IMG/VR virus record: IMGVR_UViG_2531839524_000005 | Reading direction: 5' to 3' (one strand) | DNA: 34,440 nt | DNA from: a virus | Lineage: Duplodnaviria; Heunggongvirae; Uroviricota; Caudoviricetes | Shown here: positions 3,038 to 3,464 of the stretch, piece by piece | Layout: each line of letters starts with the position of its first letter | How positions within the stretch are numbered: the first letter of the stretch is position 1 | Translations under genes and position numbers: made by a program | The notes under the pieces: generated by a model | Database searches by the model: none | Told to the model about the DNA's origin: nothing | The model's input: the letters and a program-made list of their open reading frames with translations, nothing else

Positions 3038-3464
3038 ATGTTTGGTATTTTCAAAAAGAAAACCCGCAAGGCCATTACTGAAGTGAAGAAAATGGAGAAC
3101 CGCGACGCGGTGGAGGCGACCGTCTGGGGGGCATATTCCATTGCATACGCTGACGGCACCTGTGACGCGAAAGAAATCGCGGTACTGGAAAAAAACCATT
3201 GCAGCACTTCCTGTCTTTGCGCCGTTCTCCGGTGAGATTGCACAAATGAGTGCAAATATCCGCGCCCGTCATGAAGCGTCGCCGCGTTCTGCCAATGCCG
3301 AAGCTCTTCGTCAGCTGGCTGATGTTGCCGGTACTGATGATGCAGTTAATGTGCTGTGCCTGTGTCTGGATATCGCTGACCAGGACGGTATCGGTCAGGA
3401 AGAAGAAGCGCAACTGAAGAAAATTGCGCAGGCGCTGCAGTTGCCGCTGGAGCAGTACCTGTGA
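3038..3464 (+). pseudogene. TerB-like (tellurite-resistance TerB domain family) gene split by a +1 frameshift at an A7 tract
   Basis: ORF 3038..3235 (frame 2) and ORF 3141..3464 (frame 0) together read as one protein if one A is removed from the A7 run at 3189..3195 (…AVLEK|KTIAALPVFAP…). RBS aagagga upstream of ATG 3038. TerB call is from a recalled motif (AYADG..., acidic C-terminal region), unverified. Confidence 0.45.

Follow-up and report, generated by a model that had tools for sequence, protein, structure and literature searches.

The A7 homopolymer at positions 3189-3195 of the DNA analyzed here (the window, that is, the whole stretch of 34,440 nucleotides in IMG/VR virus record IMGVR_UViG_2531839524_000005) very probably marks a genuine, inherited loss-of-function allele of an accessory ("moron") tciA/TerB gene carried by a lambdoid prophage of ETEC O169:H41. 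The inserted A is seen in independent assemblies, it is inherited with the prophage type in which it occurs, and relatives of the prophage carry the same gene in an intact state that is under purifying selection. As a genetic object the locus is an ordinary pseudogene and an already known one, given that RefSeq annotates the gene as "frameshifted" in the same prophage.

The interrupted reading frame and its homologs

The segment spanning positions 3185-3200 reads CTGGAAAAAAACCATT, and the A7 run occupies exactly 3189-3195 on the + strand. Two ORFs are found at this locus, 3038..3235 (65 aa) and 3141..3464 (107 aa), the second lying in the +1 frame relative to the first and, as delimited mechanically, starting at a TTG within the upstream frame. 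The initial annotation had described this arrangement as a TerB-like gene that is split by the A run and can be rejoined by removing one A. That description is exact: deletion of a single A in silico yields a 426-nt ORF with a 141-aa product, the junction of which reads ...AVLEKTIAALPVF... The gene as it stands spans 3038..3464 (+ strand) and is therefore 427 nt long instead of 426. Its designation as a tciA-like gene of the TerB family, inactivated by a +1 nt frameshift, is based on this restoration, on matches to Pfam TerB and PHROG 632, on its identity to P1 TciA and on the RefSeq "frameshifted" flag. In the present state of the locus, the truncated frame (3038..3235, + strand) comprises 52 native residues followed by 13 out-of-frame residues (NHCSTSCLCAVLR) and terminates at the TGA in 3233-3235, and the rest of the TerB frame (3195..3464, + strand), corresponding to residues 53-141, is now in the +1 frame and has no upstream start of its own. 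Gene callers predict within this remainder a 72-aa ORF that covers the C-terminal half of the protein (3246..3464, + strand), with an ATG located 10 nt past the premature stop and 9 nt past a GGTGAG sequence (3231-3236). This ORF has been called on 141 contigs in a form with His at residue 78 (H78) and on 248 contigs in the form with Tyr (Y78). Also downstream of the A run on the + strand, allele alignments identify a TAT to CAT change at 3270, which replaces a nearly invariant Tyr (Y78H) and occurs in frameshifted alleles only, and a CTGTGC/CTGTGT hexamer at 3354..3365, which encodes a Leu-Cys repeat in the TerB frame and is present as two to four CTGTGC units in other A7 alleles.

There are 18 homopolymers of at least 7 nt in the window, and the A7 run is not unusual by itself. 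Its significance lies in the break that it introduces into a conserved single-gene family, within a motif (L50-E51-K52-T53) that is invariant across the site of the lesion. In a large protein collection, this family comprises more than 200 clusters of single chains, almost all of them of 140-142 aa. The initial annotation had considered that homologs might instead exist as two separate genes with independent starts at this position; such an arrangement was looked for and was not found in any of these clusters. Among 5,426 complete E. coli genomes the gene is present in 180, with an exact 63-mer bearing A6 in 44 genomes and the exact 64-mer bearing A7 in nine (F9792, F8111-1SC3, F6326-C1, 2014EL-1345-2, LR882990, E275a, MB06101, B4103-1 and 214-4). 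Intact alleles read either GAA AAA ACC (A6) or GAG AAA ACC across the site, and P1 tciA is an A6 allele. The dN/dS ratio among intact alleles ranges from 0.04 to 0.09, indicating that selection acts on the full-length protein wherever the gene is intact.

A different frameshift in the same gene was observed in E. coli JNE25-005 (locus L006, 301-727), in which T3 has become T4 right after the ATG of an A6 allele and for which RefSeq gives a CDS shortened to a start farther downstream. Either an independent inactivation or an error of that assembly may account for it.

Family and predicted fold of the restored protein

The restored 141-aa protein matches the Pfam TerB profile (PF05099) with 33.7 bits (gathering score 24.4, E=4.8e-8), and by this profile test it appears to belong to the TerB family, with a match that is partial and covers profile positions 60-106 only. 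When searched separately, the two fragments score 20.2 and 14.2 bits, both under the 24.4 cut-off. Both halves weakly match one and the same part of the TerB profile, suggesting the presence of an internal repeat. Along its entire length, the restored protein matches PHROG 632 ("tellurite resistance", moron category; E=2e-63, residues 1-141 versus profile positions 1-143), and a tblastn search with it against P1 (NC_005856) returned TciA with 85.1% identity over 100% of the query. By this similarity, the restored protein is an ortholog of phage P1 TciA.

Relative to the P1 TciA group (PHROG 632), the locus displays full-length similarity and an adjacent tciB-like gene and lacks an intact frame, and it is hence a pseudogene of the P1 TciA / PHROG 632 family. 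The likeness to P1 includes the TciB-like DUF3927 gene that comes next with overlapping stop and start codons, as well as the A6 tract that P1 tciA shares with intact alleles, and the P1 tci operon is likewise accessory and non-essential. Unlike its P1 counterpart, the gene in the window is frameshifted (A7) and resides in a lambdoid late region, between a Q-like gene with tRNA genes and the holin genes, instead of in the P1 plasmid-prophage; moreover, the window has no tciC-like ORF after tciB.

An AlphaFold2 model of the restored protein, generated with 27 homologs (pLDDT 85.9, pTM 0.82), predicts one compact six-helix domain, with helices at residues 22-36, 44-55, 58-80, 82-95, 102-116 and 120-132. 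Because helix 2 spans residues 44-55 in this model, the frameshift after K52 would fall inside it. A Foldseek comparison of the model with the PDB yielded as best match 2h5n_A (probability 1.00, TM 0.54-0.57, E=6.7e-3, 129 aligned columns), which we take to be a TerB-family structure. A sequence search of the PDB returned no sequence-level relative of the restored protein and only chance-level PNPase matches, and a search of NCBIfam returned only a sub-threshold DjlA match.

With the TerB proteins of the ter clusters (terZABCDE), which are linked to tellurite resistance, phage inhibition and colicin resistance, the restored protein shares the Pfam TerB match, and its predicted fold, which is all-helical, may be similar to theirs. 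In contrast to those clusters, the gene in the window is a stand-alone phage gene whose profile match is partial. No other ter genes (terC/terD/terZ) are found beside the locus, where the neighbors are the Q-like gene, the tRNA genes, the tciB-like gene and the holin genes. Association with ter genes, it should be borne in mind, defines the ter operon and not the Pfam TerB domain. Neither TciA nor TciB matched any of the PADLOC defense models, and an assignment of these proteins to anti-phage defense was accordingly dropped.

Origin of the extra A and alternative explanations

A sequencing error had been listed initially among the possible causes of the split gene, together with a general concern about homopolymer lengths in the assembly that stemmed from this run and from a T8 run at 19348-19355. 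A miscall of this kind, with the true gene intact, has in its favor that homopolymers are error-prone on some platforms and that the window holds probable substitution errors. The first 25 kb of the window are, however, approximately 100% identical to ETEC O169:H41 genomes, and positions 1-34,100 are collinear with the independent complete genome of strain 2014EL-1345-2 (CP024223), with no indels and 11 substitutions. It follows that all 68 homopolymers of at least 6 nt are equal in length in the two sequences, and the T8 run that had prompted the concern is reproduced in CP024223. The suspected errors of the window are thus substitutions and not length changes. The identical A7 tract is present in nine complete genomes from several laboratories, and RefSeq (PGAP) flags the gene as "frameshifted" in all seven of these that were opened. 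Furthermore, 452 contigs (NCBI, MGnify, Logan, ENA) encode exactly the same 65-aa truncated product with the out-of-frame tail, and it is also indexed in an assembly collection, in 803 blocks that include draft genomes and a metagenome, which excludes an error of this particular assembly. A miscall is therefore effectively refuted, and it is the possibility of a genuine pseudogene, raised alongside it, that is borne out. The homopolymer lengths of the window can be trusted, and tciA is best annotated as a frameshifted pseudogene and not as two small genes.

In nine of the 11 private differences between the two sequences, CP024223 has a T where the window has a G; the preceding base is a G in every case, and GG precedes in eight (positions 2705, 3130, 8321, 10444, 21353, 24706, 26520, 29185 and 30264). 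The difference at 3130 lies within the tciA pseudogene and is synonymous. These T-to-G differences look like platform-specific substitution errors, as opposed to length errors or true variation. Collinearity with CP024223 is lost in 34101-34440, which corresponds to the end of an IS4-family ISVsa5 (IS10-like) element inserted in the ompN region adjoining the prophage.

The length of the A tract follows the ancestry of the prophage. All six copies that are at least 99% identical to the window carry A7, and identity falls to 97.9% for the nearest A6 allele. The A7 alleles occur in two 5' haplotypes, once (locus L018) with a different upstream neighbor gene, and contain one, two, three or four CTGTGC units, corresponding to gene lengths of 427, 433, 439 and 445. 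Expansion of the hexamer is seen in five of ten distinct A7 contexts, the loci with variable CTGTGC hexamers being L005, L009, L015-L017, L019 and L022. The frameshifted form bearing Y78H is found on 141 contigs, and a restored intact H78 protein is absent from approximately 15 billion proteins, so that no revertants have been seen. G119A is also present in A7 alleles and, together with Y78H and the hexamer expansions, makes up the later changes that occur only or mainly in these alleles. A relaxed constraint downstream of the lesion may be suggested by these events, which are few, namely two point changes and in-frame repeat expansions. In intact alleles CTGTGC is almost fixed at one unit, and no expansion was found among the intact rows of a spread sample. 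One intact 143-aa allele (P0001) is nevertheless expanded, which weakens the hexamer expansions as proof of decay and leaves them as supporting evidence only.

Seven synonymous SNPs in the 58 bp from 3079 to 3136 set 214-4 and B7A apart from the window, F9792 and E275a, and the rest of the gene is identical. A comparison over 2.8 kb assigns strain 214-4 to the window's type on either side of this 58-bp B7A-like patch, the only stretch in which it differs. The patch is a short recombination (gene-conversion) tract within the pseudogene. An independent recurrence of A7 in 214-4, as hinted by its B7A-like 5' SNPs, is conceivable but not needed, since recombination and a single origin are enough to explain the pattern, and a single origin explains all A7 copies. 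Given that the state of the tract tracks ancestry, and that the A7 copies have diversified with no revertants seen, we consider the A7 allele to be old, diversified and stably OFF.

The events that gave rise to such an allele can be reconstructed as follows. Replication strand slippage in the A6 tract (GAA AAA ACC, codons 51-53) would have added one A. This happened once, in the ancestor of prophages of this type, and the mutation has since been transmitted vertically and by recombination. Ribosomes initiating at 3038 would translate the 52 native codons and 13 wrong codons before stopping at the TGA. Of the six helices of the single domain, the resulting 65-aa product would retain only helix 1 and a portion of helix 2, and on the basis of the model it is almost certainly inactive. 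The gene is presumably dispensable for the phage, and its loss was tolerated; the dead gene has since gained further changes. Such a loss in one prophage lineage fits the situation in P1, in which tciA, tciB and tciC, so named by homology only, were non-essential in a genome-wide CRISPRi screen (PMC10695390), and in which the tciABC operon has been lost from nearly half of the P1 subgroup-1 phage-plasmids (PMC9603915). Translational coupling to tciB may have been lowered as well. The tciB gene itself is still intact, which shows that decay does not extend to the whole cassette.

The locus therefore combines a disruption relative to intact homologs that are under purifying selection with the recurrence of the same lesion in independent assemblies and strains. 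A single-base insertion in a short run, clonal inheritance and a RefSeq flag are also what characterizes ordinary homopolymer-frameshift pseudogenes of prophage cargo (PGAP "frameshifted"), from which there is no material difference here. As a result, ETEC O169:H41 and related strains harbor a widespread type of prophage that has kept tciB but has no working TciA. Beyond annotation quality the importance of this loss is small; the intact A6 allele (e.g. in strain B7A) and the natural A7 allele do provide, however, a ready-made isogenic pair for tests of phage TciA/TerB function.

The initial annotation had also raised slipped-strand on/off switching. According to this explanation, the A tract would be a contingency locus at which slipped-strand mispairing frequently toggles tciA between ON (A6) and OFF (A7) in one and the same lineage. 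The mutation does reside in a homopolymer and is reversible in principle, A6 and A7 both exist in E. coli, and in JNE25-005 a frameshift has occurred independently in a different short run (T3 to T4). A frameshift in a mononucleotide run within coding sequence is also what the locus shares with the phase-variable contingency genes of Neisseria, Haemophilus and Campylobacter. Known phase-variable tracts, however, are usually 8 nt or longer, and the tract considered here has only 6-7 nt and is interrupted (GAG AAA) in many intact alleles, an arrangement that selection for mutability would not favor. Near-identical strains differing in tract length were not found, all prophages of the window's type being A7 the states tracking prophage ancestry and the closest A6 allele being only 97.9% identical. 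Likewise, intact H78 proteins number zero versus the 141 contigs with frameshifted H78, A7 alleles have gained repeat expansions and substitutions without reverting, and 214-4 is accounted for by a single origin and the 58-bp recombination patch. We thus regard switching as very unlikely. A recoding mechanism appears equally improbable. It would supply full-length TciA at a set low level, either through a +1 slip of tRNA-Lys (AAA to AAA, with ACC as the next codon) or through RNA polymerase dropping one A, and would make of A7 an attenuated allele. In E. coli, both ribosomes and RNA polymerase are known to slip on A-runs, and a +1 slip on GAA AAA AAC would restore the wild-type peptide ...LEKTIAAL exactly. 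The two-frame layout, however, is confined to one prophage lineage, with more than 200 homolog clusters in frame. The A-site codon is AAC, neither a rare codon nor a stop, no SD-like stimulator or AGGAGG lies just upstream, and a downstream stimulatory RNA structure was discarded because the following 65 nt have no significant structure (z = -1.1). The Y78H change and the Leu-Cys expansions further argue that the C-terminal part is not selected. A programmed -1 frameshift was also rejected: A_AAA_AAC is in register for -1, yet a stop is reached 17 codons into the -1 frame, and TerB continues in the +1 frame.

Less probable still is a split gene, in which reinitiation at the ATG at 3246 after the TGA at 3233-3235 would yield 65-aa and 72-aa pieces that perhaps work together. 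The stop lies within GGTGAG, the ATG follows 10 nt past it in the TerB frame, the weak TerB profile matches of the two halves fall on the same part (the suggested internal repeat) and the 72-aa ORF is predicted by gene callers on hundreds of contigs. No homolog is split at this position, however, and the model predicts one compact domain, of which neither piece would contain the last part of helix 2 or any of helix 3 as far as residue 70. The 72-aa part, in addition, carries Y78H, G119A and helix 5 insertions of 2-6 residues in various A7 alleles. Some residual expression is conceivable irrespective of these scenarios: spontaneous +1 slippage on AAA AAA or RNA polymerase slippage may produce a low level of full-length protein, and the C-terminal half could be made from the internal ATG at 3246 after the SD-like GGTGAG. 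There is accordingly a slim chance that the A7 allele is attenuated or rewired, and not dead, in the successful ETEC O169:H41, with a trickle of full-length protein (from a +1 slip on GAA-AAA-AAC or from RNA polymerase) and/or a reinitiated C-terminal TerB half that keeps tciB coupled. The inherited loss-of-function allele remains by far the preferred explanation.

Prophage neighborhood and the T8 run

The tciB-like gene (3461..3613, + strand; DUF3927, 50 aa) is intact and was identified through PHROG 1470 (E=3.3e-23) and the RefSeq annotation. Its GTG start overlaps the tciA stop (GTGA), and the order of tciA followed by tciB is the same in P1. Upstream on the + strand are a Q-like antiterminator gene (1413..1955; DUF1133, PHROG 753, E=5.5e-79, and annotation) and the genes for tRNA-Thr(tgt) and tRNA-Gly(tcc) (2312..2465). 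Downstream, also on the + strand, is the first holin gene of the lysis cassette (3700..4092; PHROG 198 and annotation). The tciA-tciB pair thus lies between the Q-like gene with the two tRNA genes and a holin-holin-M15 endolysin lysis cassette, and the slot just upstream of the lysis genes is the usual position of cargo genes in lambdoid prophages. A consensus scan detected terminator-like hairpins followed by a T run on the + strand both upstream of the tciA-tciB cassette (2829..2855) and downstream of tciB, before the holin gene (3662..3688).

Several other features of the prophage can be recorded. At 5339-6130, the window contains a 263-aa ORF of which RefSeq, in a near-identical prophage, annotates the first 258 nt only, as a partial ParB/Srx (ynaK) pseudogene without its C-terminus. 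The 478-aa gene located directly after the large terminase gene (9674-11110) bears the RefSeq name "anti-CBASS protein Acb1 family protein". The record PP818812.1 ("Actinobacillus phage vB_Apl-pPE4", locus L010) has 93% DNA identity to the E. coli prophage region described here, and its genes from antiterminator to endolysin are arranged as in the window; it is labeled with Actinobacillus pleuropneumoniae as host, a label that looks doubtful.

The T8 run at 19348-19355 forms a -1 slippery heptamer, T_TTT_TTT, in register. The gene that contains it has two frames (18969..19586 and 19358..19651) and is flanked by the tail sheath/tube genes on one side and by the tape measure gene on the other, and the -1 frame entered from T8 runs to 19651, exactly the start of the tape measure gene. 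A programmed -1 frameshift of the tail assembly chaperone, in the classical layout, is plausible at this site. The gene is unusual in that its 0 frame stays open for approximately 77 more codons, with the two frames overlapping by approximately 230 nt, and RefSeq annotates the 0-frame product only.
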